Assembly: GCA_903911245.1 (NCBI GenBank)
Contig: CAIWCR010000028.1
Span: 1-57,758 of the forward strand
Direction: 5' to 3'
From: an uncultured Parcubacteria group bacterium
GTDB lineage: Bacteria; Patescibacteriota; Minisyncoccia; UBA6257; 2-01-FULL-56-20
DNA: 57,758 nt
Part shown: one piece after another, positions 35,405-52,930 of the stretch
Layout of the letters: every line of letters begins with the position of its first letter
How positions within the stretch are numbered: the first letter of the stretch is position 1
Notes under the pieces: model-generated
The model's input: only the letters and a program-made list of their open reading frames with translations
What the model was told of the DNA's origin: nothing
The model's database searches: none
Translations under genes and position numbers: made by a program

Positions 35405-36277
35405 TTATACGTCTTCTCGTATTCGATAGCTAAATGCTTCGGCGAGATGTTCTGCGGCTACTGTCTCTTTTTTATCGAGGTCTGCGATGGTGCGTGCCAC
35501 TTTAAGGATTCGATAATAACTTCGCGGGGAAAGCCACCCCTTTTCAAAATTTTCAAGAAATTTTTCAGCATCAGCCTCGAGGTTTATAAGCTGTTCCGTT
35601 TCGCGCGAACCCATTTCTGAGTTTGTTTCTATTTTTATGTTTTGACTATCAAATCGTTTACGTTGGGTTTCTCTTGTTGATGCCACCCTCTCTCTAATAG
35701 AAAGATTTACCGACTCAGGGCAGCCCCCTTTTCGCAGTTCGTCTATTTTGACGCCACCGACTTTTATCTGGATATCGATACGATCAAGAAGCGGTCCGGA
35801 AATTTTCTTTTGATATTTAATTACTTCATAGGCAGAGCACGTACATGGATGTTCGGAATTGCCATAATATCCGCATGGACATGGATTCATTGCCGCGATA
35901 AGTGTAAATTTTGCCGGAAACAGTAAACTGCGTTTTGTTCTTGCAACATGAACCATTCCTGATTCCATTGGTTGACGAAGTGCTTCCAGTGCGTTTTTTT
36001 GAAATTCGGGGAGCTCGTCAAGAAAAAGAATGCCACGATGAGAGAGGCTGATTTCTCCGGGCTTTGGATCTTGTCCTCCTCCAATGAGCGCTGCGACGGA
36101 TGTTGTCTGATGCGGCGATCTGAATGGGCGTCTGCGAATGAGACCGTGAGAGCCAAGGCCGGCAGCGCTCCATATTTTTGTAACCTCGATCGCTTCGTTT
36201 ATTGTAAGATCGGGCAAAATTCCACCAAGCGCCTGAGCAAGAAAACTTTTTCCTACACCGGGAGGTCCTATCATCAG
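35405..36277 (-). pseudogene. comM: comM/yifB 3' portion (290 codons from Walker A to stop), separated from its 5' portion by the inserted element
   Basis: Reads (L)MIGPPGVGKSFLAQALGGILP...ILFLDELPEF...LIAAMNPCPCGYYG...AEHLAEAFSYRIREDV*, the Mg-chelatase-like AAA+ ComM C-terminal two thirds. It has no native start codon or N-terminal domain. Confidence 0.9.
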
Positions 36278-36298
36278 GGCGTTGGGGTCGCTATTCAA
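36259..36298. other. attL junction (host half-site + AG + element half-site)
   Basis: CGGGAGGTCCTATCATC-AG-GGCGTTGGGGTCGCTATTCAA, with AG at 36276..36277. The element-side arm 36281..36298 is the inverted repeat of 52890..52907. Confidence 0.7.
36281..36298. repeat. Left terminal inverted repeat (attP half-site P')
   Basis: GTTGGGGTCGCTATTCAA. Its reverse complement TTGAATAGCGACCCCAAC matches 52890..52907 (TTAAATAGCGACCCCAAC) at 17/18. Confidence 0.85.
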
Positions 36299-36434
36299 CC
36301 ACCAATAAGGCGTATTCCCAATGTGGATAAGTTATTTGTCAGAAGAGTGTATACTTATAATAATCCCGCATGGGAGGGGGATGTCCCGTTAGGGCATCGC
36401 AAAAGAATCAGCGAAGGCTGGTTCTTTTGTTTTT

Positions 36435-37220
36435 CTATCCAATCAACTTTTTACCAAATCCCTTTACCGCACCTTCGGCCGAACACCGATATTTGCTTTG
36501 GATATTATCCACGACGGTTTTTAAAAAGTTTTCTCGCAACGCTGGAAATCTGCCATAAGATTGAAGAATGTCTAGTTTGGTCGCTAGAGTTAATAAATCT
36601 GCAAATTCCAATCCCGCTATCATTTTCTCCTTCCCTTTAATTTTTAGTTCTTTAGAAGTTAAGAATTTTTGAATGTTGTATGGATGACGATAATAAGTGC
36701 CGGACTCATAAAAGTTTTTATAGGCTTCTTTAAGAGCTAAATCTTCTCGTTCCCCCCTCGTTTCGGCAATAACATCTCCAATCGCATTGTTTTCTTCAAG
36801 GCAAAAGGTGTATCTCTCTAAGAGAATATTGAGACAATAATGATAAGGGTGATAAGCTGTCTGTTGATGTTTTTCTGCATGAGTTTTTTTATCCAATACA
36901 ATGGCGCATATTGTGTAATCTAAATCCTTAAACAAACTGATAAAGGATTTGTTAAACTCCCTTTTAACCTCATCGTTGTTCAACTTTGTAAATACTCCTC
37001 GCTGGTTTACTATATCGTCTCGGTGGAGAACGGGCAGCTCATCTGAGTCGTCGGCAATCAATCGCTTAATTTTTATCAAAGTAGGCTGCAGCATCTCAGC
37101 GTTTGTTTTCTCGCTGATAATAACCCCAGTCAGGCCGAGATATCTACGGGCAGGATCATCCGACAACGAATAATTATGCGTTCCCGATTCATCTATGTAG
37201 AGTCTAAATTTTTTTGGCAT
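36435..37220 (-). CDS. DUF3800-family protein
   Basis: 261 aa. N-terminal FRLYIDESGTH is the DUF3800 hallmark (IDESG). Confidence 0.7.
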   Translation of the reverse strand: MPKKFRLYIDESGTHNYSLSDDPARRYLGLTGVIISEKTNAEMLQPTLIKIKRLIADDSDELPVLHRDDIVNQRGVFTKLNNDEVKREFNKSFISLFKDLDYTICAIVLDKKTHAEKHQQTAYHPYHYCLNILLERYTFCLEENNAIGDVIAETRGEREDLALKEAYKNFYESGTYYRHPYNIQKFLTSKELKIKGKEKMIAGLEFADLLTLATKLDILQSYGRFPALRENFLKTVVDNIQSKYRCSAEGAVKGFGKKLIG

Positions 37221-37321
37221 TTCAGGATAGGCAAATTTGGGGTGGTAAATTCATTCTTATTAAGAATGAAAGACCAGCGCACAAGTTCACTGGTCTTTCG
37301 TGTTTGCAAAAAACTAACTCG

Positions 37322-37615
37322 CTACGCGCGACACTCTGGGAGTGTCAGCAGATTATCGCGCCTTGTGGAATCGGGAATCGTTCTTACGAATTTCTTTCCG
37401 CCACGCAGGAATGTTTCGAGGTATGCTTTTCGTCTTCCATCAGGAGTCTGAACATAAGCCACTCCACCACGGTCAATAAAGATGACCATCTGCAATAGAG
37501 TATACTTACCATTCAAGGACGTGGAATCCTCAATCCATCCAAACGAGGAAATTGCCTCGTGCGGATTTTCGTGATAACCATGATCCTTATTAATACACAC
37601 AATTCTTAATACCAT
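37322..37615 (-). CDS. DUF3892-domain protein
   Basis: 97 aa with IVCINKDHGYHENPHEAI...KFVRTIPDSTRRDNLLTLPEC. This matches the family pattern (CINKD ... PHE ... YLRT.PD...NNLL.LPEC). Confidence 0.65.
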   Translation of the reverse strand: MVLRIVCINKDHGYHENPHEAISSFGWIEDSTSLNGKYTLLQMVIFIDRGGVAYVQTPDGRRKAYLETFLRGGKKFVRTIPDSTRRDNLLTLPECRA

Positions 37616-37766
37616 TTTTTGGATTTGCGAATTAGCCCATACGAGTTATACTGATTATAGCCCGTATGGGTCGTGGGATATCGGGCGACCGATTAACGAT
37701 GGGACACCGATTTTTCCACTATTGTTTTTTTCAAGAGGTCTGGATTTACGTCCGGACCTTTTGAGT

Positions 37767-38135
37767 TCAAGTCTTTGCAATAAGTTTAATCACAAACAAC
37801 TTGCCAAAATTTGGATCCTCAATCTCCTCGGGAGAATATCTTCCCGCGTATTTTTGAGGATCAATAGAATATGAGGCGAGGAACGACCTCGCCGAAAAAT
37901 ATGCTCCCTTTTCGTCGGGGCGTTTTTTTAGTTTGAACATTCCCTCGCTTTCTTTTTCCACTAGCTTTATCCCTATTACTTGAGCTTCTTTATCAAAATA
38001 AAGCTCTACTCCCATATAATTGTCCAATTTATAGCGATGATGCATTCCAGAAGACAGCCCCAATCCCCCACTCCTGTTTATCGTCACTTGTGGCGTAAAT
38101 TTCCCTTTTTTCGCAATAAATTTCTCAAAATTCAT
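37767..38135 (-). CDS. Hypothetical protein
   Basis: 122 aa on the same strand as its neighbours, with no recognisable motif. Confidence 0.45.
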   Translation of the reverse strand: MNFEKFIAKKGKFTPQVTINRSGGLGLSSGMHHRYKLDNYMGVELYFDKEAQVIGIKLVEKESEGMFKLKKRPDEKGAYFSARSFLASYSIDPQKYAGRYSPEEIEDPNFGKLFVIKLIAKT

Positions 38136-38441
38136 ATATTTTTTAATATTATTTTTGTTTCGACTCCTATATTATAGATTAGTTTTTTATAAAATGCAAG
38201 CTCTAGTTTCTTTAAAAAACCGCGCATGACTCACTGGCGTACCCTATAATTGCGCCATTCTTATAACTATAACGTACAAATAAATCCAAACGTTACGTTC
38301 GGTTTTATAATTTAAAACGCTAAAAGTCTATTGAATGTCATGGTTTCAATTAGACAGCCTATTATCACCGCTTCATTCTTAATTTCCCTACTTTTGAAAA
38401 ATGTGGGAAGAATATTTTGAATGAGACGCGAAGTGATATTT

Positions 38442-38846
38442 TTATTGTCGTAGAAAAGAAATTATTTTTTCTAATGTCATCACATTCTTTCCCTGAAGTT
38501 GACGCTCCCATACCCTAAGAACGAGCCATCCTTGTCTTCTAAGTTCTGCGCGATTTCTCCTATCCCTATTGATATTGCTCTGTATTTTTATTCGCCAGAA
38601 TTTTGGGAGTCGATCACGGTGTCGGGAAAATTGATGACCATGCCAAAAATCGCTGGCAATAAAGATGGCACGTTTCCTTTTTGGTAGTGCGACATCAGGA
38701 CTCCCTGCTGCTTTCTTGTAATGTTTTTGAAAATATATTTTATTTGAACGCAGGGCTGAAAATACCAAATTTTCTATCTTGGTGTTTTTGGGACGGATAC
38801 GAGATATTATCTCGCTCCGCTTTTCTTTTGAAAATATGTCAGCCAT
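38442..38846 (-). CDS. vsr: Very-short-patch repair endonuclease (Vsr)
   Basis: MADIFSKEKRSEIISRIRPKNTKIE...GSPDVALPKRKRAIFIASDFWHGH...FWRIKIQSNINRDRRNRAELRRQGWLVLRVWE aligns by eye along the whole of E. coli Vsr. Confidence 0.88.
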   Translation of the reverse strand: MADIFSKEKRSEIISRIRPKNTKIENLVFSALRSNKIYFQKHYKKAAGSPDVALPKRKRAIFIASDFWHGHQFSRHRDRLPKFWRIKIQSNINRDRRNRAELRRQGWLVLRVWERQLQGKNVMTLEKIISFLRQ

Positions 38847-38862
38847 TTATAAATCAATCGCG

Positions 38863-39372
38863 CTAATAGCCCACAATCATAATCCCCGCCAGTGGTAAAT
38901 TCCACCTATCCGAGGCGTAAAGGGTGTTAAAGAAGTTTACAACCGCATTGAAATTGTCGTGACTGCGGTAGTCGTTTCTTACACAGATAATCAGATAATC
39001 AATGTCATGCATTACACATGCCTGAAACAAATCTTTGAGGAATTGATAATTTGTGACACCTCTTCCGGCCTCGACTTCGATGACGGTTTTTGAATTTTTA
39101 TTCCACCCGTCAGCATCGAAAGACTTTTCTATTCTGCCGTTTTGTCCGAACAAAACAGGGATACTTATTTTTTGATTTTTACTCTTACCGGATTCCACTT
39201 CAAATCCAATCTTTTCTAAGTCTTTTTTTAGAATCCCGAGTACGGTGTTGCTGTTGAATTTGTGCGCTGGCGAAGAAATTTTAGAATCATTCGGTACAAA
39301 GACGTCATCAATGATTTTCCTCAGGTGAATTGGCGCTTCTTTTGATTTTGGATAAAATTGCCATTTGGTCAT
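38863..39372 (-). CDS. PD-(D/E)XK restriction-endonuclease-like protein (BamHI-type D...E-x-E signature)
   Basis: FDADGW...TVIEVEAGRGVTNYQFLKDLFQACVMHDIDYLIICV. The start is set at ATG 39372 (MTKWQFY), 19 nt after the upstream stop. Confidence 0.5.
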   Translation of the reverse strand: MTKWQFYPKSKEAPIHLRKIIDDVFVPNDSKISSPAHKFNSNTVLGILKKDLEKIGFEVESGKSKNQKISIPVLFGQNGRIEKSFDADGWNKNSKTVIEVEAGRGVTNYQFLKDLFQACVMHDIDYLIICVRNDYRSHDNFNAVVNFFNTLYASDRWNLPLAGIMIVGY

Positions 39373-39391
39373 TGTAGAAAGATGGTGAAAT

Positions 39392-40006
39392 TTATAATAA
39401 AGGAACGATGCTCCCAACGTTTCTGCCATTTATTTTGTTTTTTACAACCTTGAACGAGGTAGGAGCTTCTAACCCGATAATCATCATCGGTACAGTGAGA
39501 ACATTATTGAGAGGAATCAGATATCGGCAAACTTTCTCGAATTCTCCGACAGCGCTATCAAATGCGCCGGCAATTTTCAGTTTTTTTGTAGTGCAAATCA
39601 CGACTCCAACCTCCGTCTGGACGGCTTTTTTGACATGGTTCATCTCGCTCGCTAGTACCGGCTTCAGCAAGTTCCATGCTATGGCTTCCCCGTGGTTAAA
39701 GGCGACCTCAATCGAAACCGAATCTTTTGCAAAATCAAGCCTCCATTTTTTTTCTTTCATGTATCCTTCTTGCTGGAATATTGGTGCTTCTTTTAGCCAG
39801 CCCTTTTCGATAAAGCGTTCCTTGAGAAGATCGTTTATGGCATACGAAAGACTCATCTTCTTTGAATATTTTGATTCGTGTCTCGTCTGGATGTCTGCAT
39901 CGGATATGCCCAAGATAACGTCGGTAAGCTCCTTATATATGGAAGCATAGCGCTCTTCGTTGAGGATTATGTCACCGTTCCTATGTGCTTTGGTTACAAA
40001 TTTCAT
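39392..40006 (-). CDS. BglII/BstYI-like restriction endonuclease family protein
   Basis: WRLDFAKDSVSIEVAFNHGEAIAWNLLKPVL resembles the BglII core (IDF.KD.V.IEVQFGKY.F..YDL). The third catalytic position is Ala here. Confidence 0.5.
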   Translation of the reverse strand: MKFVTKAHRNGDIILNEERYASIYKELTDVILGISDADIQTRHESKYSKKMSLSYAINDLLKERFIEKGWLKEAPIFQQEGYMKEKKWRLDFAKDSVSIEVAFNHGEAIAWNLLKPVLASEMNHVKKAVQTEVGVVICTTKKLKIAGAFDSAVGEFEKVCRYLIPLNNVLTVPMMIIGLEAPTSFKVVKNKINGRNVGSIVPLL

Positions 40007-40180
40007 GGGATAGAAATTAATGGATTAATATCTAAAGGATAGATCAAAACTAGCCGATAGTCGATCTGTCATGTTATTGTTTACCAGGTGTGGGTTTTAA
40101 AACCTGTGTATTACTCGATCTTGATCAAATAATGTCTTTGTGATAGGATTTCTATAAATGATTTTAATTTTATTAACACA

Positions 40181-41455
40181 ATGACTTCAAGGAATAAAGG
40201 GACGGATAAGGAGCTTCGGGTGGTAGAGCTTTTTGCAGGAGTCGGCGGGTTCCGGCTCGGGCTTTGCGGTACTGCTAAAAAACCATTCAAAGGATATAGG
40301 ATTGTTTGGGCAAATCAATGGGAGCCTTCTGGTCGCACCCAGCATGCTGCTATGGTTTATTCCGAGCGATTCCATAACGGGGCAAAACCCAACGAATATT
40401 TTAATGAGGATATAAACAAGGTTGTCGAGATTAAAAATTTTCCAGTTCCGGACCATGATTTATTGGTCGGCGGCTTCCCCTGTCAGGATTATTCAGTCGC
40501 CCGGACATTGAGTCATGCTGCGGGTATCGAAGGGAAAAAGGGTGTTCTCTGGTGGGCAATCCATAAGATTCTCCAAAGGAGGGCGCCTCAGTATGTCATG
40601 CTGGAAAACGTCGATCGCCTCTTAAAATCTCCGGCTTCCCAGCGAGGGAGGGACTTCGGTATCATACTAGCTTCCTTATCCGATCTCGGGTACGCCGTGG
40701 AATGGCGGGTTGTGAACGCTGCAGATTATGGAATGCCCCAACGCAGGAAAAGAACTTTTATTCTGGGCTATAAAAAAGGAACTTCTCTCTATAATAAACT
40801 GACCCATGCAAAACCACTGGACTGGCTAACCAAAGACGGCGTCGTCGCTGATGCGTTCCCAGTAAGGGATTTTGAAGTTGCTTTCATTCCTCGATTCATA
40901 GAGATAGAAGGAAGCCTCGATGAAGTTTCAAAAAAATTCAAATTCTCCTTTGAAAACTCCGGCCTTATGTTTGGACGGAAATTTATAACTACTAAAACGA
41001 CGCCTCATGATTATGAGACGACAACTCTCGGCTCAATTCTGCTTCCTATTGAAGCGGTTCCAAAAGAATTTTTTATCTCAAAAAGTGAACTGGCCCAATG
41101 GAAGCGTCTGAAAGGTAGTAAAAAAGAAATTCGTTCTTCGAAAAACGGCTTTACTTACACTTACGCCGAAGGATCAATGGCTTTTCCTGATTATCTCGAC
41201 CGACCGTCACGCACTATCGTGACGGGAGAAGGAGGCCCCTCACCTTCCCGCTTTAAGCATGTTATAAAACAAGGAATCCATTATCGAAGACTTGCTCCAA
41301 TTGAGCTTGAACGTCTTTGTATGTTTCCGGACAATCATACCTCCTATCCCGGGATAGGAGATGCAAAGCGTGCATTTTTTATGGGTAATGCCCTAGTTGT
41401 CGGCGTTATCGAAAGACTCGGCCAATCTCTTCTAAAAGCCAATAAAAATCTCTAG
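40181..41455 (+). CDS. dcm: DNA (cytosine-5)-methyltransferase
   Basis: Motif I ELFAGVGGFRLGL, motif IV GGFPCQDYS, motif VI MLENVDRL, motif VIII QRRKRTFILG, motif X GNALVVGV. Confidence 0.93.
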   Translation: MTSRNKGTDKELRVVELFAGVGGFRLGLCGTAKKPFKGYRIVWANQWEPSGRTQHAAMVYSERFHNGAKPNEYFNEDINKVVEIKNFPVPDHDLLVGGFPCQDYSVARTLSHAAGIEGKKGVLWWAIHKILQRRAPQYVMLENVDRLLKSPASQRGRDFGIILASLSDLGYAVEWRVVNAADYGMPQRRKRTFILGYKKGTSLYNKLTHAKPLDWLTKDGVVADAFPVRDFEVAFIPRFIEIEGSLDEVSKKFKFSFENSGLMFGRKFITTKTTPHDYETTTLGSILLPIEAVPKEFFISKSELAQWKRLKGSKKEIRSSKNGFTYTYAEGSMAFPDYLDRPSRTIVTGEGGPSPSRFKHVIKQGIHYRRLAPIELERLCMFPDNHTSYPGIGDAKRAFFMGNALVVGVIERLGQSLLKANKNL

Positions 41456-41702
41456 TGCTCTATCTATTAGTTTATTAATTTGTTCTGCAATGCCAAAGAA
41501 CTTTTAGTTTTAATATGGATAAGGCAAAGCCTTTGCCCATAGCCCATAGAAAGCCGGCTCCACACTATAAAAACCACGCCTAGACCAAAATTTGTGGCTT
41601 AATCACCATTCAAAAACGAGCATAAGTTCTAAATTTGTAATATTCAACCAAGGGGACTTTCCATATTTCCGAAAAAGAGTTTTAGTTAGCTCTAATCGAA
41701 AT

Positions 41703-41849
41703 ATGAAAAAAGATAATAATAAATTTGCAAAACTCTGCCGAAAAATAATCGAGCATCTTAACCATTGTGAGGTATTCGAGAAAGAAGAAGAGGAAATGAT
41801 GAAATTAGCAAAAGAGCTTCTGATTGTCACATCAAAACAAATAGATTGA
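41703..41849 (+). CDS. Small hypothetical protein (48 aa)
   Basis: The ATG at 41703 gives MKKDNNKFAKLCRKIIEHLNHCEVFEKEEEEMMKLAKELLIVTSKQID, followed by the hairpin repeat. No homology was recognised. Confidence 0.3.
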   Translation: MKKDNNKFAKLCRKIIEHLNHCEVFEKEEEEMMKLAKELLIVTSKQID

Positions 41850-41858
41850 GAATTTTCA

Positions 41859-41899
41859 GTTTTTCGGTTTTTCTTTCCCTAGGGAAGCGGAAAACCGAA
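41859..41899 (+). repeat. Hairpin element copy A (terminator-like), related to 51021..51065
   Basis: TTTTCGGTTTT...TTCCCTAGGGAA...AAAACCGAAAA, with an 11-bp outer and a 5-bp inner stem. It lies 10 nt after a plus-strand stop codon. Confidence 0.6.
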
Positions 41900-41931
41900 A
41901 AGCTAGTATCTATCGGATTTCCGTTTTTACC

Positions 41932-42180
41932 TTACTGTTCCCTATCCCCTCCTTCCTTTCTCATGAGATATATCATCCATGCGTAATCAAGTGGAATATA
42001 CTCAATAATATATCCGTTTTCGCACTTTGCTGAACATTCTTCAACGATTTCTAGGACATCGTGTTGCTCGTCCATTGTTAGCTTCTTACCTATATGCTTC
42101 TCGAGTTCGATAATCAAATGGTCCAACATTGCCATCTCTTCTTGTACGGCCGTCTTCTTTTGCAGTTTGAAGAACATCAT
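41932..42180 (-). CDS. Hypothetical protein (82 aa)
   Basis: Last ORF of the XRE-ImmA-SppA minus-strand block. No motif was recognised. Confidence 0.4.
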   Translation of the reverse strand: MMFFKLQKKTAVQEEMAMLDHLIIELEKHIGKKLTMDEQHDVLEIVEECSAKCENGYIIEYIPLDYAWMIYLMRKEGGDREQ

Positions 42181-42254
42181 CCAAGATGTATTTGGGAAGC
42201 ATGTCTTTAAGTTTGATTTTCTTTTGTCGTTTATTCATAAGGCTTTGTTACAAA

Positions 42255-43070
42255 TTACTGGCACAACGTAACATCTTCCCCTATTTTTCCCTTGAGATAA
42301 TTTTGAACGTCATAAATATTTCCGATTTTATCAATCAGCTTGTTTTGTAGTGCCATCTTACCGAGCATCGAAGAACCATCAGCAATTGTGGTTACGCTTG
42401 CCACGGAGAGATTGCGATTCCGTGCTACGGAACTGATGAAGTTCTGCATCATGATATTAAGATCTCGCTGAAATAATGCCTTTTCTTCTGTTGTAAGCGG
42501 GGTATCTGGATTCCCGGCATCTTTATACTTCCCGGCAGTAAGTGAAACGAACGTCTGACCATTTTGTTCATTTTGTTTAACATTATCAAGATATGATTGC
42601 GTAACTCCGATATCAACGAGGGTTGAATTTGCGGACGCAAAGATCGTTTCTGCGCCTGTTGCAGCCCAATAGGCTGCTGATGTGCCCATGTCTCCCACAA
42701 GAGCTACGGTTGGCTTGTTGGCATGTTTCAATGCGGTTGCAATATCTTCTCCAGCCACCGGGTTTCCGCCAAATGAATCAATGTGCAAAACAATGGCTTT
42801 GATATTTGGATCAGCATCCGCCATCTCAATCTGCTGGCGTATATCTTCGGAGGCTGTCTGATTGAGCGTGTTTGATGCGTCGTTGCCGTTTTCATTCGGA
42901 TAATAGACGACCGAACCGTAAAGCTGTACCACTGCTACATTGCAACTTTTTGGTTGCTGGTTCCAATATTCAGAAAGACTAATGACGCCACCAATAAGAA
43001 TGGCGAGGGCGACTAGTCCAAGAACCGTAACCATCAAAGATTCTTTTGTTGATTGAAGATTGAATTTCAT
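42255..43070 (-). CDS. sppA: Signal peptide peptidase SppA-type (S49) serine protease, membrane anchored
   Basis: N-terminal TM helix, IKAIVLHIDSFGGNPVAGEDI, and GDMGTSAAYWAATGAETIFAS (catalytic Ser context). Confidence 0.8.
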   Translation of the reverse strand: MKFNLQSTKESLMVTVLGLVALAILIGGVISLSEYWNQQPKSCNVAVVQLYGSVVYYPNENGNDASNTLNQTASEDIRQQIEMADADPNIKAIVLHIDSFGGNPVAGEDIATALKHANKPTVALVGDMGTSAAYWAATGAETIFASANSTLVDIGVTQSYLDNVKQNEQNGQTFVSLTAGKYKDAGNPDTPLTTEEKALFQRDLNIMMQNFISSVARNRNLSVASVTTIADGSSMLGKMALQNKLIDKIGNIYDVQNYLKGKIGEDVTLCQ

Positions 43071-43098
43071 ATTTTAAGGGATAATGAATTTAAGTTTT

Positions 43099-43608
43099 TT
43101 ATTTTATAAGTTTCAGATTAATAAGTCTGAAATTCATAGCTTGTTCGCTCACGCCATATTTTTTAGCAAGGACTTTTAAATGCTTTGTTGAAAAATCGCC
43201 TTTCACTATTTTTCGAAAATCTTTTTCCATATTTGTCTTTGGCATTAAAATTGCCGCTGCATATCTGTCGGCTTCTTTCTCTTTTATATTTCTTAACGGT
43301 TTATCACTTGGATTTCTGTGTTCGAGATAATCGACAAATGCTTTTTGCGTATGATGCAAGAAAAGATGACCCAACTCGTGAGCAATCGTGAATCTTTGTC
43401 TCGTTACTGCTTCTTTGCTGTTGAGTCCTATTAATGCCTCACCTTTTTTTCTAATAAGGAGACCAGAAAATTCTTCGCTTGGTGCACGACTTATGCGGAT
43501 ATTACATTTTTTTGCAATATCTTCTACGGGAACGGGAATTGATTCAATAGCAAGAGATTGCAATAGTTCATCAGCCTTATTTTCAATGCGTTGTATTATT
43601 TTATCCAT
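43099..43608 (-). CDS. ImmA/IrrE-family (M78) metallopeptidase
   Basis: HELGHLFLH (HExxH) in a 169-aa protein. It overlaps the upstream XRE gene by 8 nt. Confidence 0.85.
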   Translation of the reverse strand: MDKIIQRIENKADELLQSLAIESIPVPVEDIAKKCNIRISRAPSEEFSGLLIRKKGEALIGLNSKEAVTRQRFTIAHELGHLFLHHTQKAFVDYLEHRNPSDKPLRNIKEKEADRYAAAILMPKTNMEKDFRKIVKGDFSTKHLKVLAKKYGVSEQAMNFRLINLKLIK

Positions 43609-43960
43609 GATTTTTGAAAAGATCTTTTGCCCACATTACTGCCTTCTCATCTTCCTTGGCTATTGATTGTAAATCGATTTTACTGAGGGAAAAACCACGA
43701 GGAATTATTGGAAAGAAGTTTTCTGTTTTACATCCGAGGAGGCAGGCAAGTTTCCATAAAAGTACCGCGTTGACGTTATTTCTGCCCGTTTCGATTTGTG
43801 TCAGTGCTTCACGGGTCATGCCCAACTCTGCCGCCACTCGTGCTGCGCTATGATTCTGTTTCTTTCGTATCTCCTGAACCTTTCTTCCGATTCCCTTTTT
43901 TATTTCGGAATCGGGTGATGTCCACTCCTTATTTATTGTACCCTTCTTTTTTGTTTTCAT
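43601..43960 (-). CDS. XRE-family helix-turn-helix transcriptional regulator
   Basis: IGRKVQEIRKKQNHSAARVAAELGMTREALTQIETGRNNVNAVLLWKLACLLG. The start is set at ATG 43960. Confidence 0.85.
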   Translation of the reverse strand: MKTKKKGTINKEWTSPDSEIKKGIGRKVQEIRKKQNHSAARVAAELGMTREALTQIETGRNNVNAVLLWKLACLLGCKTENFFPIIPRGFSLSKIDLQSIAKEDEKAVMWAKDLFKNHG

Positions 43961-44000
43961 TTTATTAAAACGTGCAAAACTTGTTTTATATAGTACCATA

Positions 44001-44017
44001 TGTTACTCACAGTAACA
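44001..44017. promoter_or_regulatory. Candidate operator palindrome in the divergent XRE / M16-operon control region
   Basis: TGTTACT-cac-AGTAACA, with 7-bp perfect arms, about 40 nt upstream of the XRE start and about 85 nt upstream of the M16 gene. Confidence 0.4.
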
Positions 44018-44100
44018 AATGACACATCTAATTCCGTTGCTATTTCGAGAAGATATAACCATACTTAAGAAGTTGAATGAAGAAAATAAGATAAGCTTCA

Positions 44101-45354
44101 ATGAAAATAAACGAAACAGTAAGAAAAGACGGACTTCGCATCATTACATGTCATGTTCCTCAAAAAAAGACCGTTCTTGTGGAACTTATTGCTCGAGTTG
44201 GTTATGCATGCGACCCAATTAATAAGCCAGGTCTTTTTCATACACTTGAACACATGGTATTTGAAGGAACGGAAAAACGTACTGCAAAGGAATTATCGGC
44301 ATTTGCCTCCAAAAATTTTTTTGGCAACAATGCTTCAACTGGGACACTTGCAACGACCTATGAGGTGACAACGATAGATAGAAAATTTCCACTGGCGTGT
44401 GAGTATCTTTGCGATATTTATTTCAATGCGACGATACCCGTCCCAGGACTGAAAAAAGAAAAAGGGCCTATCTTACTCGAAATCGCAAGAAAAAAGGATT
44501 CTGACAATTCCATCGGAAGCATGGCCTTGAATGAGTGTTTATACAAGGAAAATCCATCTCGTTGCGATGGCGTCGGTACTTCGGCCGGAATAGGAAGAAT
44601 TCATCGTGCCGATCTTATAGATCAAAAAAATAAATGGTATATTCCCTCGAATACCATTGCGCTTGCGGTCGGAAACATAAATCATGACGATTTCGTAAAA
44701 GAAATAAACAAGCGAATTCCGTTGTCCTTGAAAAAAGTTTCTTTATGCCAATGGGGCGACGAAGCGAACGATCCTCCTGTAAAAAAGGAAATGATCATTA
44801 AAAAACCGAAGCGCGAGAAAACAATGCTTTTTCTTGGATGTAAAATTCCCAAAAATCTTGATGTACGACAGGAGGAAGCATTTTCTTTGTTTAGTAAATT
44901 AATTGGCCGTGGATTCGATTCACCCCTCTGGCATGAAATTAGGGAGAGAAGAGGCTTGGCATATAGTATTCAAAGTAACTATTCTGGAATCGCCGGCTTG
45001 AGTAGTAGATTTATCGTATACGCTGAGACGAGCCAGTCAAAATCGTCACAAGTCGAAAAATTGATATGGCAGGTACTTGTGAAGCCTCTTCCTGATAATG
45101 GCAAATTCGAGGAATTAAGAGAGAAGGTATTTAATGCGTTTGAGGTGGATGTTATTGAAAACAACGAACTCGATTACTTCGAAGGTCTTATATGGAAAAA
45201 GATAGTCGATGGAGATCCGGTAAAAATGGCGGAACAGGAAGATAAAAAACGCCTTAAGGCGATTGCCAGTCTTTCGCTGAAAGATCTTGAAGCGGTTCGG
45301 AAGCAATTTATTCGTCCAGAGCGATTCGCGAAAGTTCTTATAGAACCAGAATAA
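44101..45354 (+). CDS. M16 (pitrilysin/insulinase) family zinc peptidase
   Basis: LFHTLEHMVFEGTEKRTAKEL contains the inverted zinc motif HxxEH. 417 aa with two M16 lobes. Confidence 0.8.
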   Translation: MKINETVRKDGLRIITCHVPQKKTVLVELIARVGYACDPINKPGLFHTLEHMVFEGTEKRTAKELSAFASKNFFGNNASTGTLATTYEVTTIDRKFPLACEYLCDIYFNATIPVPGLKKEKGPILLEIARKKDSDNSIGSMALNECLYKENPSRCDGVGTSAGIGRIHRADLIDQKNKWYIPSNTIALAVGNINHDDFVKEINKRIPLSLKKVSLCQWGDEANDPPVKKEMIIKKPKREKTMLFLGCKIPKNLDVRQEEAFSLFSKLIGRGFDSPLWHEIRERRGLAYSIQSNYSGIAGLSSRFIVYAETSQSKSSQVEKLIWQVLVKPLPDNGKFEELREKVFNAFEVDVIENNELDYFEGLIWKKIVDGDPVKMAEQEDKKRLKAIASLSLKDLEAVRKQFIRPERFAKVLIEPE

Positions 45355-45408
45355 TGTTTTGTTTTGTTAATTATTAAAGAGTCGAAACAAAAATAATCAA
45401 TATCGATC

Positions 45409-46320
45409 ATGAGAGAACCCATTATCAGCGATCAAGATTTTATAAGGCGTCTTTCGGAAGAAGAAAGAAAGCACGCAGGGTTTATTTCGACAAAAGAGAT
45501 TTTCCCTTTGGTTTGCGAACATGCGGCGCTTTTGGAGAGCGGTATAAAACCTGTCGGCGCCATCCCGACGGGTTTTATAAAACTGGACAAAGCGCTCATC
45601 GGATTGAAAAAAGCGGATCTTATCGTTGTCGGCGCAGAACCTTGCGTAGGAAAGACTGCCTTTGTTCTTAGTCTTGCGGAGAATATGGCGCATAAGGGGA
45701 TGAAGGTTGGAATCTTTTCTCTCGACACGTTAAGAGAAAAAATAATGCAGCGGTTAATAGCGATTCGAACATCAATTCCATTATGGCGCATCGTCACTGG
45801 TCGGTTAAATAAGGGCGACATGAAGCGTATTGAGCAATGCGCCGAGAGTTTCAAGAAGTTACCATTATATATCGACGACGAGACAGATCTTGATGTTTTG
45901 GAACTACGTTCAAGAGCGACTGAACTTAGGGATAAAGATGGATTGGATTTTTTGATAGTGGATTGTTTTCAGTTTATCCGTTCATTTGATAATGAACCCC
46001 ATAATCTAAACAGGGTCGCTTGTGGTCTCAAAATGATTGCCGTTGAATTGAATATCTCCATTGTTATTACTTTGAATATGGAACGAAAGCAATCCGATCA
46101 TCACTTTCCGAATTTTCACGACATCCGCCAATGGTCACTGGATCGATATGCGGATGTTGTATTAATGCTTCGTCAAAGTAATCAATTTGAGGTCGATGGA
46201 TCCATACGACCGATTGACATCTTTGTTTTAAAGAATAAAAATGGTCCAACAGGGATGGTTGAGCTTGGTTTTGATTACGAGTTGGCGAGTTTCATCGACG
46301 CGGTAGAATCAAAGAAATAA
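45409..46320 (+). CDS. DnaB-family helicase C-terminal (RecA-like) domain protein lacking the N-terminal domain
   Basis: GAIPTGFIKLDKALIGLKKADLIVVGAEPCVGKTAFVLSLAENMA (Walker A), LDFLIVDCFQFI (Walker B), VLKNKNGPTGMVELGF. It aligns by eye with DnaB residues ~180-470. Confidence 0.8.
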   Translation: MREPIISDQDFIRRLSEEERKHAGFISTKEIFPLVCEHAALLESGIKPVGAIPTGFIKLDKALIGLKKADLIVVGAEPCVGKTAFVLSLAENMAHKGMKVGIFSLDTLREKIMQRLIAIRTSIPLWRIVTGRLNKGDMKRIEQCAESFKKLPLYIDDETDLDVLELRSRATELRDKDGLDFLIVDCFQFIRSFDNEPHNLNRVACGLKMIAVELNISIVITLNMERKQSDHHFPNFHDIRQWSLDRYADVVLMLRQSNQFEVDGSIRPIDIFVLKNKNGPTGMVELGFDYELASFIDAVESKK

Positions 46321-46330
46321 CATAATTAAT

Positions 46331-47089
46331 ATGTCTCAATACTATAAGCCACAAAAAACAAGAAATCTTTTTGATCCAAAGTCAAAAGAGCCTTTTGTGG
46401 TAAGCCGAAGCGGAATCGATCTCTTTATACAATGTCCGCGATGCTTTTATCTCGACAAGAGGCTTGGCACCGCACGACCACCGGGATTCCCCTTCAGTTT
46501 GAATTCTGCCGTAGACGCTCTTCTCAAAAAAGAATTTGACATGCATCGAGCTAAGGGATCGACCCATCCGCTTATGGAAGAATATGGTATTGATGCCGTA
46601 CCTCTCGCAGATGAGAGACTTGATGAGTGGCGTGATTCATTAAGGAATGGGATAAAATATTTTCATGAACCAACGAATCTTATAATTCGTGGCGGTATTG
46701 ATGACGTATGGACAAGGCCAAACGGAGAATTGTATATCGTGGATTATAAAGCAACGTCAAAAAACGAAGAGGTTAACCTTGATGCCGAATGGCAAGATGG
46801 CTACAAACGACAAATGGAAGTGTATCAGTGGCTTTTCCGAAAAAATGGATTCAAGGTGTCAAATACGGGATATTTCGTTTATTGCAATGGAGATACCGAT
46901 AAAGAAGCGTTTGATGCCAAGCTCGAATTTGATATCAAAGTTATTCCTTATGAAGGCAATGATGAATGGATCGATGGCGTCATAACGGATTTGCACAAAT
47001 GTTTAATGGAAAAGAGTGTTCCGCGAGCGAAAGATTCCTGTGATTATTGTGCTTATTTCGAACGCCGGGCGTATCATGAGAAAAAATAA
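46331..47089 (+). CDS. Cas4/RecB-like PD-(D/E)XK nuclease with 4-Cys cluster
   Basis: N-terminal CPRCFYL, core GGIDDVW...LYIVDYKAT, C-terminal CDYCAY. This is the Cas4/AddB-type arrangement of one N-terminal and three C-terminal cysteines (the third Cys is not unambiguously placed). Confidence 0.65.
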   Translation: MSQYYKPQKTRNLFDPKSKEPFVVSRSGIDLFIQCPRCFYLDKRLGTARPPGFPFSLNSAVDALLKKEFDMHRAKGSTHPLMEEYGIDAVPLADERLDEWRDSLRNGIKYFHEPTNLIIRGGIDDVWTRPNGELYIVDYKATSKNEEVNLDAEWQDGYKRQMEVYQWLFRKNGFKVSNTGYFVYCNGDTDKEAFDAKLEFDIKVIPYEGNDEWIDGVITDLHKCLMEKSVPRAKDSCDYCAYFERRAYHEKK

Positions 47090-47109
47090 AAAATTTAATT
47101 AATTTAAAA

Positions 47110-47736
47110 ATGTCGAACAAATATTTTTTACAACTTGAAAAAGAATTCGGAAAATATGGTAGCTGGGCTTTGTGGGATAAGGACGGTAAAATTGAGCCAT
47201 TTGTTCAAATAAAAAATTCCGTACGTTTCATAAAAGATTCTATTAATCCGAATATTGTTTTTATGGGATTAAATGCTAGTCGTGATTTAAAAAAAGAAAT
47301 CGATTGGGCAAATTATCACTCAGATTTGAAACCTAAAAAGGGACGAACATGGAAGAAGGCTTCTTGTCGCAGGTTAGCAGAAATTATCCAACAGAAAGAG
47401 TTTTTTCCGTTTCGGGGTGCATATATGACCGATATTATTAAAACCAGATACGATTCGACAAGTGGAAAACTCAAAATATTTCTTAAGACTCATAAAAGCA
47501 TTCTTAACAAGAATAAAAAACTACTTGAAAGAGAGATGAAAATGCTTCAGAAAATTTCTGGTTCAAATAAATTTGTAATTATCTGCATTGGTGATGATAG
47601 TTTTGAAATTACTAAACAAATATTGGGAACGAATGAGAATTTATATAAAATTCCACATTATGCGATGCGTGGAATTGATGATGAAATAAGAGAAAAAATA
47701 CAACAAGGGCTAATAAAAATAATTAAGAAGCTATGA
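47110..47736 (+). CDS. Uracil-DNA-glycosylase-superfamily-like protein (tentative)
   Basis: The motif order is reminiscent of the UDG fold: IVFMGLNAS (motif A-like), GAYMTDIIK, FVIICIGDD, IPHYAMRG (motif B His). The call is weak. Confidence 0.35.
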   Translation: MSNKYFLQLEKEFGKYGSWALWDKDGKIEPFVQIKNSVRFIKDSINPNIVFMGLNASRDLKKEIDWANYHSDLKPKKGRTWKKASCRRLAEIIQQKEFFPFRGAYMTDIIKTRYDSTSGKLKIFLKTHKSILNKNKKLLEREMKMLQKISGSNKFVIICIGDDSFEITKQILGTNENLYKIPHYAMRGIDDEIREKIQQGLIKIIKKL

Positions 47737-47916
47737 TTCTGTTTCCGCGAACTCTTTTGGATTCATCCTGCGATATCTGATTTTGTTCTCGATTAAATGG
47801 ATGATACATCCGTCATTACTACAATTCGAGCTAGGGCATTTTGCGCAAGTCGGAACGAGGCATGAATATCTTTTTATGTTTTCTTCCCCCAAGTTTATCA
47901 AGCGACATCATTGTCT

Positions 47917-48183
47917 TTATTGGTTATTTCTATCTTCATTTATTGAATTCTGCTTAGATTGTACGGGCTTAATTCCTGCGCTCCATTTCCATACTTTCAC
48001 AGCCAACCAAGCCCCCGCAAGACCTCCTGTGATTTCTCCGATGGAAATTATTGCCTGCATTGTTTCTGCTGAGGAGTTCTCAAACATGAGACCGAGACAC
48101 AAGACAACACTAACGGTAATTATTTTCCCGGCTACGACAAAAGTAATAAGACCACCGATCAAACCAATTATTTTTTTCACCAT
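47917..48183 (-). CDS. Small membrane protein (88 aa, 2-3 TM helices)
   Basis: Hydrophobic segments IIGLIGGLITFVVAGKIITVSVVLCLGLM and ISIGEITGGLAGAWLAV. It lies downstream of the nuclease-like gene on the same strand. Confidence 0.5.
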   Translation of the reverse strand: MVKKIIGLIGGLITFVVAGKIITVSVVLCLGLMFENSSAETMQAIISIGEITGGLAGAWLAVKVWKWSAGIKPVQSKQNSINEDRNNQ

Positions 48184-48272
48184 TTATTTTTCTATTTTTA
48201 ATTTTTCCGACCTTTACCACCGCATCGAGCTAATTAAAAATCGGTTTTGTAAAAAAGAAAACAAATCTGTCG

Positions 48273-48803
48273 TTATATGTGGTTTTCGTTCGTTTTCTCT
48301 CGGAGTATCTTTTGTGCCATAGCCATTGGGTCTTTACTAAAAACTATATCCCAGCGGTTTTTTAACTTTTTCAATTCTGGCAGTTCCTTCTCGAGCCAAA
48401 AAACTCTTTTGCCTTTTTCTATCGTCTGTTTGGACTTCTTTGATCGTTTAAGAAATTTCTTATACTCATTCTCCACTTTCTGATTCAATAGGTTTTTAGG
48501 AATTATGTAATATTCAATATGCTGATTTTCAGGAATGGAATGGACGGCTACAAATATATAAAATGACCTACCCCATTCTTTCTTTACTTGGAGAGGCCTG
48601 CTGCCCATCTGCCAACTATTCTCAGTTAATTCAACGGTTCTTGTTTTAACTTGTATATCAACGGAGTCATATTCATTGCTTGCAACGATATCCACTCCTG
48701 CGGTGTTTCTCAGGGTAACAGCAGCAATGAAGCCTCGCCGTGAAAGCTCCCCTGCTACAAAATATTCCCCTGCTATTCCTGAAAAAATTTGTTTCGTTTT
48801 CAT
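48273..48803 (-). CDS. PD-(D/E)XK nuclease-fold protein (DUF4365-like N-terminal domain)
   Basis: GIAGEYFVAGELSRRGFIAAVTLRNTAGVDIVASNEYDSVDIQVKT has the G.GE...L...G / D-I-V / QVK pattern. The start is set at ATG 48803. Confidence 0.5.
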   Translation of the reverse strand: MKTKQIFSGIAGEYFVAGELSRRGFIAAVTLRNTAGVDIVASNEYDSVDIQVKTRTVELTENSWQMGSRPLQVKKEWGRSFYIFVAVHSIPENQHIEYYIIPKNLLNQKVENEYKKFLKRSKKSKQTIEKGKRVFWLEKELPELKKLKNRWDIVFSKDPMAMAQKILREKTNENHI

Positions 48804-49111
48804 TGGATACAAAAAACCCATCACGTGAGCGATGACTCCGAAGAGTCACCCATAGCCCTTTCGAGCTATGACCTGTTGAAGATGCTCCCACATGATGGGG
48901 TCTTTTTCTTCAACAGGATTTTTGCCATGCCAAACGGTTGTTTGGTTTAGGCAATGCTATTCAGTTGTAATTTTAGAATATCACGATTATAGAAAATTCG
49001 GAATGCTCCGTCCAAGGCTTTTGAAAAAAACAAAAAGCAAACAAAATACAAATATTTGACTCATGAAAACGATTATTTTTTTATATCGATTTTTTCCACA
49101 AGCTCTTTCTC

Positions 49112-49139
49112 TTGACTAGCGAATCTAGTGCGATATACT
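49112..49139 (+). promoter_or_regulatory. Sigma-70-like promoter inside the element's 0.9-kb non-coding region
   Basis: TTGACT (49112..49117), 16-nt spacer, TATACT (49134..49139). Confidence 0.5.
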
Positions 49140-49288
49140 ACCGAAGTAGGTGGCTCTTGAGAAAAAAGAAAAGAGCAGATCCATTGAAAAGTCCAGACCT
49201 TGGGCGAGGACGTTGCGGGTAGCGAATCATCCGGTGAACTCCTAATATACTTGGAGAGTAGAGCCATGATTGTGAGGATGAGGAGTTA

Positions 49289-49371
49289 GGGCTGCAAACT
49301 AAAAAGCGAGTACATAATCAAATCAACAGGTCGTTGTTTGTGTATTCACTTTTCGGTTTGCGGCCCTTTTT
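49289..49371 (+). terminator. Long imperfect hairpin plus T5 (terminator/attenuator or 3' end of a ~230-nt RNA)
   Basis: GGGCTGCAAAC (49289..49299) pairs with GTTTGCGGCCC (49356..49366). The stem continues inward (AAAAGCGAGTACA / TGTATTCACTTTT). It is followed by TTTTT. The G-U pairs exist only on the plus strand. Confidence 0.5.
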
Positions 49372-49601
49372 GATAAATATCTCCAGAGCACCGCTCTAAA
49401 TTGAAAGAGCAGAGCTCTCAAAAACTTAAAAGCATTATAGCTTCTCGGTTCCCTACCCTTACGGACAAGGAATCGAACAAGCTGTTTTTTGACCTGAACG
49501 AACTCAGTGATTTTTTGGTACGCCTATTTATTAAGCATCAGAAAGGAAGGGGTCCTCCCGAATGAGATGCAAATGGGCTGAAATAAATAAATTTTTAAAT
49601 A

Positions 49602-49754
49602 ATGCAAAAGAAACAAAAAAGACGGGCGAACAAAAAAGCCCGAAAAGAGGTTAAGGATTCTTTAAAGAGTGAGTACGAGATGGTCGGTGAGGTAGTCGAA
49701 CAAGATAAACATATTTTGAATGCGATGAGCATTCTACTAACAGAAAATGAATAA
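49602..49754 (+). CDS. Small basic protein (50 aa), possible accessory/DNA-binding factor
   Basis: The ATG at 49602 gives MQKKQKRRANKKARKEVKDSLKSEYEMVGEVVEQDKHILNAMSILLTENE. Its stop overlaps the start of the next gene by 8 nt. No SD is visible. Confidence 0.3.
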   Translation: MQKKQKRRANKKARKEVKDSLKSEYEMVGEVVEQDKHILNAMSILLTENE

Positions 49755-51018
49755 AATAGAAATATTAAATATATTAAATCGCGACAAGATTCTCCGTGGC
49801 GAATCTGCGGGAGACGTGGCAATCCAATGTCCGTTTTGTAGGGCTGTCACAGCGACAGGAGAAAAATATCTCACGATGATTATCAATTCTGATACTGTTA
49901 GAAGCTACTGCGGAGAGTGTCGCAAATCAGTTAGTTTTGATGAGCTTCTTGAGGTTCTGGAAATAAAAACGAGTCCTACGTTATCGAAATCGGAAGCAGG
50001 GTTGCAATTATCAAAGACGGAGCTGTCCATCGGGACGGAAGAATATGAAAGTAACCGATTCGTGCCGGAGAACCATCGGAACCTTGTCGCATCCGGCATT
50101 ATGGAAATCGAATGGCTTGTCGAGAATATCGTGGCAGTCGAAGGCTATACATTAATTTCCGGTGCCCAGCAGTCAGGGAAAAGTCTAATTGCCCTCCTGC
50201 TTGCGAATACGGTAACCACGGGCAATCCCCTTTTTGGAAAATTTGTAGCAAAAAAGGGAAGGGTTCTTTTTGTCGACGAGGAAAACGGAAGGACGAGGCT
50301 GGCTGCACGTACAAACCTCCTCGGGATTCCGGCTGAATGCGAGATAGAATATCTGATTAATAAGAGCATTATGGTCGACTCCCTGAAAGATCTTACAAGA
50401 CTGGTGGCTCTTTGTCAGAAGAAAAAATATTCTCTTATCATCTTTGACTCGCTGGTTAGATTCTTCAGAGGCAATGAGAATGAGGCTGGTGTCATGTCTG
50501 AAGTGAATCGATGCTTTAATGCTCTTAGGGCTACCGGCGCAGCTATTGTGGCGCTTGCTCATAACAAGAAATCGGGATTTGACGGAGCTTCTGAATTAGG
50601 AAGTATGGTTCGCGGCTCATCGGAGATTGTTGCCGCTCCCGACTGTCATATCGCCCTTAAGAAGATAAAGAATGTCATCGAGGTTCGTCAGCCGAAATTC
50701 CGCGATGGCGATCCATTCCACCCTTTCAAGCTGAATATTATTGGGGATAAGACGTTTATCAAAATTACTTATGATGGACAGTTAGATGAGGAGAAATCAA
50801 AGAAAGAAGAAACGGCAGATGCAGTCGTCAGTCTTTTACAGGAAGGTGAATTGCCGAGAGATGTCATCGTCGAAAAATTGAAGGATATTGCAGGAGAAGG
50901 CGTTATTGGAAAAGTTCTCACCGAACTTCTTAAGACAAAAGCGATACAGCGCCGGAGTGGAGATAATAATAAGCATTTCTATTCGCTGATGGAAGAATCC
51001 GCGGACGAACAGGTGTAG
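49747..51018 (+). CDS. RepA/AAA_25-type RecA-like ATPase with N-terminal zinc ribbon and C-terminal winged-helix-like tail (element replication protein)
   Basis: CPFC...CGEC zinc ribbon, Walker A ISGAQQSGKSLIAL, Walker B-like RVLFVDEENG and LIIFDSLVRF. 423 aa. Confidence 0.65.
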   Translation: MNKIEILNILNRDKILRGESAGDVAIQCPFCRAVTATGEKYLTMIINSDTVRSYCGECRKSVSFDELLEVLEIKTSPTLSKSEAGLQLSKTELSIGTEEYESNRFVPENHRNLVASGIMEIEWLVENIVAVEGYTLISGAQQSGKSLIALLLANTVTTGNPLFGKFVAKKGRVLFVDEENGRTRLAARTNLLGIPAECEIEYLINKSIMVDSLKDLTRLVALCQKKKYSLIIFDSLVRFFRGNENEAGVMSEVNRCFNALRATGAAIVALAHNKKSGFDGASELGSMVRGSSEIVAAPDCHIALKKIKNVIEVRQPKFRDGDPFHPFKLNIIGDKTFIKITYDGQLDEEKSKKEETADAVVSLLQEGELPRDVIVEKLKDIAGEGVIGKVLTELLKTKAIQRRSGDNNKHFYSLMEESADEQV

Positions 51019-51020
51019 TT

Positions 51021-51065
51021 TTTTGGTTCTTCCTTCCTTAGGGAAAGAAAAAACCGAAAAACCAG
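51021..51065 (+). repeat. Hairpin element copy B, related to 41859..41899
   Basis: TTTTTGGTTCTTCCTTCCTTAGGGAAAGAAAAAACCGAAAAAC is 34/43 identical to copy A in the same orientation. It also lies directly after a plus-strand stop codon. Confidence 0.6.
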
Positions 51066-51145
51066 AAATCCCACACAAAATCGGAAATTATTTTGTTTTC
51101 CAAAGAACTAGAGGTTTAATTAGGGCATAAATAAAAATTAAGTCA

Positions 51146-52780: not shown

Positions 52781-52889
52781 TTTTTTAAAATTACAAAATT
52801 TTATTCCAGTGCTATTAGTTAGGCATGGCATTATCTGACGAGACAGTGCAAGAAATACACAAGAAATCCAAAAAGCGGAGCAGTTGAAG

Positions 52890-52930
52890 TTAAATAGCGA
52901 CCCCAACATTAGAACGTTATGACCACCGGA
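52890..52930. other. attR junction (element half-site + AG + host half-site)
   Basis: TTAAATAGCGACCCCAACATT-AG-AACGTTATGACCACCGGA, with AG at 52911..52912. Confidence 0.7.

Follow-up and report, generated by a model that had tools for sequence, protein, structure and literature searches.

What has divided a comM gene of an uncultured Parcubacteria group bacterium into two halves that lie more than 16 kb apart, and at which nucleotides did the division take place? The gene is found on a contig of 57,758 nucleotides (nt) (GenBank CAIWCR010000028.1, assembly GCA_903911245.1) that we have analysed over its whole length and refer to as the window; all coordinates given here are plus strand positions of it. 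Its product belongs to the YifB/ComM family of Mg-chelatase-like AAA+ ATPases, and the DNA that separates the two halves carries, next to one of the breaks, the gene for a large serine recombinase (LSR). An original prediction, made from the letters of the window, had read the two junctions as the products of recombination between a pair of attachment (att) sites, attP and attB, with AG as the crossover dinucleotide. Our answer follows that proposal: a 16.6-kb non-viral island very probably entered this chromosome, that of a member of the Patescibacteria or candidate phyla radiation (CPR), by means of its own LSR, through conservative site-specific recombination at AG. The features on which the argument depends are the following.

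35405..36277, minus strand: C-terminal half of comM/yifB, from the Walker A motif (MIGPPGVGKS...) to the C-terminus, with the core CT (plus strand AG) counted in; defined by translation and by tblastn (residues 219-510, 99.7%).
52911..53572, minus strand: N-terminal half of comM/yifB, a ChlI/Lon-like domain as far as ...GGHNVL, including the core; defined by translation and by tblastn (residues 1-224, 99.6%).
36278..52910: integrated island, 16,635 bp from core to core, with replication, restriction-modification and regulatory genes.
36252..36301: attL, with B arm 36252-36275, core AG 36276-36277 and P' arm 36278-36301; strongly symmetric over 36281-36299.
52887..52936: attR, with P arm 52887-52910, core AG 52911-52912 and B' arm 52913-52936; strongly symmetric over 52889-52907.
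51146..52780, plus strand: LSR of 544 amino acids, ending 110 nt from the P arm inside attR.

Both junctions lie within a single minus strand gene, of which the N-terminal 218 residues are encoded from 53572 down to 52911 and end in ...AASGGHNVL. When the halves are rejoined at AG an in-frame ComM of 510 residues results that scores 557 bits against TIGR00368, for which the cut-off is 362.4. The six nearest intact homologues in a set of 5.8 billion proteins cover 100% of this query at 76-80% identity; the five closest (77-80%) have exactly the rebuilt length of 510 residues and the sixth (76%) has 513, and the names of their sources are Candidatus Liptonbacteria, Paceibacterota and Parcubacteria. 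Three loci with an intact gene (L001-L003) match the flanks of the window as well, with comM, a UvrD/PcrA-like helicase and RsmA. Because tblastn places the break points at the limits of comM homology (residues 1-224 and 219-510), they are established independently of any inverted repeat. The rebuilt attB spans the codons ...GGHNV-L-MIGPPG..., immediately ahead of the Walker A motif of a protein that is described as the branch-migration helicase of natural transformation (bioRxiv 10.1101/147660, also PMC6158740).

Read on the plus strand, attL is GGTCCTATCATC-AG-GGCGTTGGGGTCGCTATTCAA with AG at 36276-36277 and attR is TTAAATAGCGACCCCAACATT-AG-AACGTTATGACC with AG at 52911-52912, so that on re-reading the sequence the strings and core coordinates of the original prediction prove exact, base for base. 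Joining the left side of attR to the right side of attL rebuilds attP as GTTAAATAGCGACCCCAAC-ATT-AG-GGC-GTTGGGGTCGCTATTCAAC in the reading direction of the LSR gene, or ...CCCCAACATT-AG-GGCGTTGGGG... around the exchange point for a crossover at AG. The two arms (52890-52907 and 36281-36298) are reverse complementary at 17 of 18 positions, as had been claimed, and at 18 of 19 when one extra base is included, with 15 nt exact, and AG occupies the centre of the 8-nt spacer ATTAGGGC (ATT-AG-GGC), on the axis of the dyad where it had been placed. The complementary combination, attL left with attR right, yields attB as GGTCCTATCATC-AG-AACGTTATGACC, an imperfect dyad about the same AG that matches at 8/12 and 11/18 positions, the values first put forward, and at 14/24 with longer arms. 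The resemblance between P and B half-sites also holds, CTAATGTTGGGG and CTGATGATAGGA being identical at 8/12 positions.

In order to estimate how often such symmetry arises by chance, each of 57,698 window positions was scored as a dyad centre with 24-nt arms. Against a background with a mean of 6.1 and a standard deviation of 2.2, attP scores 18/24 about AG, and a score of at least 18 is reached at 2 of the 57,698 positions; the attB level, at least 14, is reached at 94. The two junctions have three blocks in common in the same register, namely CAT (36272-74 and 52907-09), which was absent from the list in the original prediction, AG itself, and CGTT (36280-83 and 52915-18). At the core the identity between the junctions amounts to 2 nt with mismatches on either side. 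The make-up is that of LSR-type att sites: in both, an imperfect inverted repeat flanks the same non-palindromic 2-bp core, and the target is not duplicated. The attR junction occurs, with 0 mismatches over the site, in two independent assemblies (L004, ERZ18625109; L005, ERZ27313079), and the gene order on the attL side (DUF3892, DUF3800, C-terminal half of comM, UvrD) recurs on a 10.8-kb contig of ERZ1426629, for which the comparison is by gene table only. Inspection by eye gave no clear signal of the 5-bp inward shift that the LI-integrase model leads one to expect for the outer motif between attP and attB.

The protein encoded beside attR, which had been read as a 544-residue recombinase, is a full-length LSR by its domains, its catalytic residues and its predicted fold. 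Pfam places PF00239 (Resolvase) at residues 23-161 with E 7.5e-33, PF07508 (Recombinase) at residues 196-314 with E 1.9e-21 and PF13408 (Zn_ribbon_recom) at residues 332-386 with 31.4 bits (cut-off 25.3). In the catalytic motif, YARVSSDEQ (R-x-S-x-x-Q), the residues R25, S27 and Q31 are invariant across 24 aligned relatives. An AlphaFold2 model (mean predicted local distance difference test score, pLDDT, 77.8) contains a pair of long antiparallel helices, residues 412-436 and 443-470, as expected for the predicted coiled-coil arm of the zinc-ribbon region. Foldseek matches this model to the full-length integrases of SPbeta, PhiC31 and Bxb1 with E values of 2e-22 to 3e-16, and to the structures 9dxh, 9tep, 9iu2 and 4kis, among them an LI integrase-attP structure, with E values of 2e-22 to 1e-11. 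At the level of sequence the enzyme stands well apart: the nearest relative among the 5.8 billion proteins (P0122) is 48% identical and the remainder at most 40%, and in a phage database of 50,697 records the best matches are the WO recombinases, at 30-33% identity over 74-97%.

A comparative test of the crossover is provided by relatives of this LSR. Nine loci (L006-L009, L011, L014, L016, L017 and L024) carry LSRs 34-48% identical to it that adjoin a comM gene broken at residues ~219-224, and for two of them, L014 (Ca. Susulua stagnicola) and L016 (Ca. Harrisonbacteria), both junctions are available. In each of these the two junctions, aligned in register, agree at exactly 2 nt between mismatches, TT in L014 and CT in L016, and this dinucleotide occupies the first two positions of the codon before ATG in (L/F)-M-(I/V)-G-x-P-G, the same place as the CT of the window. 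The attP sites rebuilt for these elements are dyads about the core dinucleotide with scores of 16/24 (L014) and 13/24 (L016). The element stands in either orientation, with the LSR beside the N-junction in the window, L006, L011, L016 and L017 and beside the C-junction in L008, L014 and L024, and despite this the core on the comM strand is always YT (Y, pyrimidine), as expected if the core dinucleotide alone sets polarity.

A P-arm motif is conserved throughout the family, TTGGGGTCGC(A/T)AT, GGACGCAAT and GGACGCAATAT, with ATTGCGTCC as its complement. We have searched the 1.74 Mb of DNA retrieved for comparison with the strict attP pattern T[TA]GCG[AT]C-N20-G[AT]CGC[AT]A, for which ~0.1 chance matches are expected, and have found three uninterrupted palindromes: L020:11499-11546 with centre TG, L025:13141-13190 with centre AG, and L093:4157-4200, on a viral contig, with centre AG. 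They are located between the 3' end of the LSR gene and ~1.6 kb downstream of it, and in all three the 2-nt centre lies 9 nt from GCGWC (W, A or T). The window attP fits the core of the pattern, GCGAC-N20-GTCGC, in register and misses its strict flanks (arms TAGCGAC/GTCGCTA).

Some further observations on the relatives may be recorded at this point. Two of the uninterrupted attP-like palindromes sit on large Acidobacteriota chromosomal contigs, of 381 kb and 1.48 Mb; an intact attP may have come to lie in a chromosome as part of a nested element or in some other way. At L006:3290-3330 and in L007, which has the closest LSR relative (48%), the P-arm motif and the comM codon together point to AT as the equivalent of the core, with a single junction on the contig; a palindromic core such as AT should give no orientation control. 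At L026:11509-13071 (Ca. Nealsonbacteria) comM, from residue ~33 on (...NIVGLPDKAV...), comes directly after an LSR relative, an arrangement that we read as a second, N-terminal comM insertion site in the wider family. Finally, in L008:1940-4438 and L009:777-3275, where the orientation is opposite, the LSR reading frame continues through attL in frame into the C-terminal half of comM, and gene callers therefore list an 832-residue recombinase-Mg-chelatase 'fusion' (P0204).

The split comM, the LSR architecture, the 2-nt cores of the relatives and the three uninterrupted attP-like palindromes support the original reading of the locus as a sequence-defined LSR/att pair. We infer the following chemistry. 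Dimers of the LSR (51146-52780) would bind the near-palindromic attP of ~50 bp on the circular form of the island and, likewise, the weaker dyad of attB within comM; cleavage of all four strands at the central AG/CT would be followed by exchange of the half-sites through subunit rotation and by their religation. Such a reaction would leave attL (36276-77) and attR (52911-12) as its products, with no target duplication past the 2-bp core, and the orientation of the island would be fixed because the core is non-palindromic. Integration has split ComM and, on an interpretation already in the literature, might thereby spare the element from transformation-mediated deletion.

Several observations weigh against this account. 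Neither an empty attB nor a free attP of this element was found in the viral and metagenome contigs scanned: exact-pattern scans gave 0 matches to the rebuilt attP in viral contigs for any of three candidate crossovers and 0 to the rebuilt attB in metagenome contigs, in which the attP arms with any 8-nt spacer also had 0 matches. The assemblies that bear the LSR, one of which also has the attL side as a gene table, are all in the integrated state, with no sign of excision, and for the left-end gene DUF3800, too, the integrated arrangement is the sole one on record. The nearest intact comM is just 80% identical as protein, so that the crossover is assigned from symmetry and comparison, and the attB dyads of the relatives are weak (8/24 and 11/24). 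In all three complete elements both junctions have in common a gene-strand AA at -7/-6, which is part of CGTT, and identity alone does not, therefore, single out the core. The zinc ribbon, for its part, reads C-x2-C ... D ... C, so that Asp stands where a third Cys would be expected (residues 335-375; window 52149-52270). This Asp is found in the two closest aligned relatives (P0122 and P0130) and is lacking in the other 21 aligned; because the closest two have it we take it to be a trait of the lineage and not decay, and it is probably tolerated.

The rival explanation that survives best, unlikely in our judgement and still deserving of real weight, accepts that the island integrated in this way and holds that the att sites are now a fossil, the island being fixed without excision or transfer, such that the pair might fail as a tool. 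In its favor are the integrated state, the only one seen in four assemblies, the contig scans that found no free attP or empty attB, and the lack of an identifiable directionality factor and of transfer or packaging genes in Pfam and PHROGs scans of the island. However, the LSR reading frame is unbroken and has kept every catalytic and family-invariant residue, and both att sites retain the 18/19 symmetry of their arms, features that lead us to infer an enzyme that may well be active today. LSR integration is reported to need no accessory factor (PMC12286644), and use as a tool depends on the integrase alone. Moreover, excised forms are seldom assembled from metagenomes, so that their absence is weak evidence.

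A second rival keeps the same system and moves strand exchange away from AG, into CGTT (notably its TT, which is AA on the gene strand) or into CAT; we assign it a very small probability. Exchange in CGTT would give the junction ATCATCAGGGCGTTATGACC and exchange in CAT the junction ATCATTAGAACG. In register, attL and attR agree over the whole of each of these two blocks, the junctions of L014 and L016 likewise have the AA at -7/-6 in common, and an in-frame comM is restored by all three choices (HNALMIGPPG for CGTT, HNVLMIGPPG for AG or CAT). The intact loci L001-L003 read CTG or CTC, then ATG, at the site, which fits both an AG and a CGTT exchange. What decides in favor of AG is the geometry of attP, the rebuilt dyad centre of which stays on AG for any block that is exchanged, whereas exchanges in CGTT or CAT would be 2-5 bp off centre (5 bp for CGTT). 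Serine recombinases cut at the dyad centre, as seen in solved integrase-att complexes, and AG is favored over the other two blocks for this reason. CAT, in addition, is not common to the junctions of L014 or L016; the shared AA can be explained as half-site resemblance between the comM codons CAT AAY and the P' arm; and the uninterrupted attP-like sites of L020, L025 and L093 have their 2-nt centre at the same distance from GCGWC. We hold AG to be the exchange point with high probability, and consider all alternatives to it, even jointly, to be quite improbable.

That comM was interrupted by a Tn7/AbaR-type transposon or a tyrosine integrase, or that the interruption is an assembly chimera, is hardly credible, for although comM is an insertion site of Acinetobacter AbaR-type islands too (PMC11441513, PMC4774983), Pfam and PHROGs scans of 36278-52910 found no transposase, TnsA/B/C-type or tyrosine integrase genes, the junctions have just a 2-nt core in common in place of a 5-bp target duplication, independent assemblies repeat the attR junction without a single difference and another repeats the attL gene order, and an LSR gene stands at the junction here as in the nine related comM-junction loci.

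We return to integration by the LSR at AG and to what the integrated DNA contains. The island was annotated by Pfam, PHROGs and PADLOC scans, and 24 of its open reading frames (ORFs) entered a Pfam/PHROGs check for virion genes. Its recognisable genes include the following.

38442-38846, minus strand: Vsr nicking endonuclease, part of a type II restriction-modification cargo (38442..41455).
38863-39429, minus strand: ORF of 188 amino acids without a family match, in the restriction-modification cargo.
39392-40006, minus strand: BglII-like restriction endonuclease, in the restriction-modification cargo.
40181-41455, plus strand: C5 cytosine methyltransferase, in the restriction-modification cargo.
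43099-43608, minus strand: ImmA/IrrE M78 metalloprotease.
43601-43999, minus strand: HTH_3 repressor-like gene.
45409-46320, plus strand: DnaB_C helicase, in a replication/recombination module (45409..47089).
46331-47089, plus strand: PD-(D/E)XK Cas4-like nuclease, in the same module.
49747..51018, plus strand: AAA_25 (RepA/primase-helicase-like) ATPase, directly upstream of the LSR gene.

The island also carries genes for an M16 peptidase, an S49 peptidase, and DUF3892 and DUF3800 proteins. No capsid, portal, terminase or tail gene was found by Pfam or PHROGs in the 24 ORFs, and because these are lacking we class the island, on its gene content, as an integrative element with replication genes of its own and not as a recognisable prophage. 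The pairing of a helix-turn-helix (HTH) repressor with an ImmA/IrrE protease is a switch typical of prophages and integrative elements. The order AAA_25 then LSR recurs in the relative L008. When 23 island proteins were compared by tblastn with 89 loci the shared genes were AAA_25 in L028, along with weak ImmA and methyltransferase matches, and nothing else, from which it appears that the LSR family travels on unrelated cargo.

As for a recombination directionality factor, the two candidates that had been offered, the ORFs at 49401-49565 and 49602-49754, receive no support, since neither has a match in Pfam or PHROGs at relaxed thresholds; the same scans (Pfam E<=1, PHROGs E<=0.05) gave no usable match for the small ORFs at 48892-49059, 49073-49267, 41932-42180 and 41592-41849. 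In two relatives an HTH gene lies just upstream of the LSR, HTH_17 in L008 and HTH_36 in L006, and the window has no counterpart at that place.

A number of smaller observations concern the island and its surroundings. The S49 peptidase gene (42255-43070) matches the head-maturation protease phrog_53 with E 2e-46, the sole match in a structural category. Within 38863-40006 the minus strand ORFs that adjoin the methyltransferase overlap, and the 188-residue ORF (38863-39429) may encode a second subunit of an endonuclease or a partner that confers specificity. A 49-nt hairpin-forming repeat occurs at 41858-41906 and 51017-51065 with 80% identity between the copies, which stand 3' of the ORF 41592-41849 and of the AAA_25 gene, respectively, and resemble terminators of one common type. 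Outside the island, positions 1001-4000 have a G+C content of 31-33%, compared with a window average of ~42%.

The ends and the middle of the island behave differently in other assemblies. Three assemblies with an identical LSR and attR, L004 and L005 among them, have contigs that start exactly at window position 50434, inside the AAA_25 gene, and a fourth contig, from the attL side, ends ~1.9 kb into the island, at about 38.2 kb of the window. Conserved ends around a middle at which assembly breaks suggest cargo variants in natural populations. A more ambitious reading, which we consider distinctly doubtful, is that this island represents an undescribed class of non-viral, self-replicating CPR integrative elements with an active, orthogonal attP/attB pair, belonging to a comM-homing LSR lineage that extends over Patescibacteria, Omnitrophota and Acidobacteriota. 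Such a class would have conserved ends, attL-DUF3800-DUF3892 on one side and AAA_25-LSR-attR on the other, around swappable cargo, for example restriction-modification genes, and the breaks at 50434 and ~38.2 kb would then reflect natural cargo variants.

Should the system be active, it would add one more sequence-defined and probably orthogonal serine integrase, with an attP of ~50 bp and an attB of 40 bp, from the Patescibacteria, a group little represented among characterised integrases. The habit of mobile elements of disabling comM extends, as this locus documents, to CPR bacteria, and because these bacteria rely heavily on DNA uptake its extension to them is of some ecological interest; the island raises no new mechanistic question. 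A narrow search for literature linking CPR, prophages and serine recombinases found none beyond an inovirus survey.

Insertion into comM is a recurrent theme among mobile elements. Mobile genetic elements occupy the orthologous comM position in Aggregatibacter, Acinetobacter, Mannheimia, Francisella and Pseudomonas, and insertion there has been proposed to protect the element from transformation-mediated deletion (Croucher 2016, PMC4774983). The island studied here shares with these insertions an orthologous site in comM, occupied in hosts far apart from one another; the AbaR islands, in contrast, move by a Tn7-like transposition module and not by an LSR. The sr1WO recombinases of phage WO integrate into the Mg-chelatase gene of Wolbachia (PMC9203015), and in both systems an LSR has targeted the host Mg-chelatase gene and left its halves on either side; the WO elements, however, are complete tailed prophages, whereas the present island is without virion genes, and the kinship in sequence is distant.

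With the integrases of A118 (LI integrase), PhiC31, Bxb1 and SPbeta (SprA) the LSR has in common the domain order of catalytic domain, recombinase domain and zinc ribbon with coiled coil, as well as dyad-symmetric attP and attB sites with a 2-bp non-palindromic core. The Listeria phage A118 integrates in a competence gene also, comK. These characterised integrases differ from the present, predicted one in their target gene and in an aligned identity of 15-18% in the fold search.

A close parallel is with the systematic survey of Durrant et al. (2022, PMC10083194), in which thousands of LSR/attB/attP combinations were predicted by the same junction-swapping approach, competence genes were enriched overall as LSR targets, and the Mg-chelatase/ATP-dependent-protease gene, that is the comM homologues, was the most enriched target, accounting for 12.4% of predicted site-specific LSRs. 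Like the comM-targeting members of that set, the system analysed here has its LSR at the edge of the element, its attB in a YifB/ComM gene and a dinucleotide core; unlike them, it belongs to an uncultured member of the Patescibacteria, and among 5.8 billion proteins the nearest relative of its LSR reaches just 48% identity. It is a clean instance of a well-known kind, its target, site architecture and enzyme class being those of thousands of predicted LSR/att pairs, and it is distinguished by its CPR host, by the distance of its LSR from those that have been characterised, and by a non-viral island that looks competent for replication.

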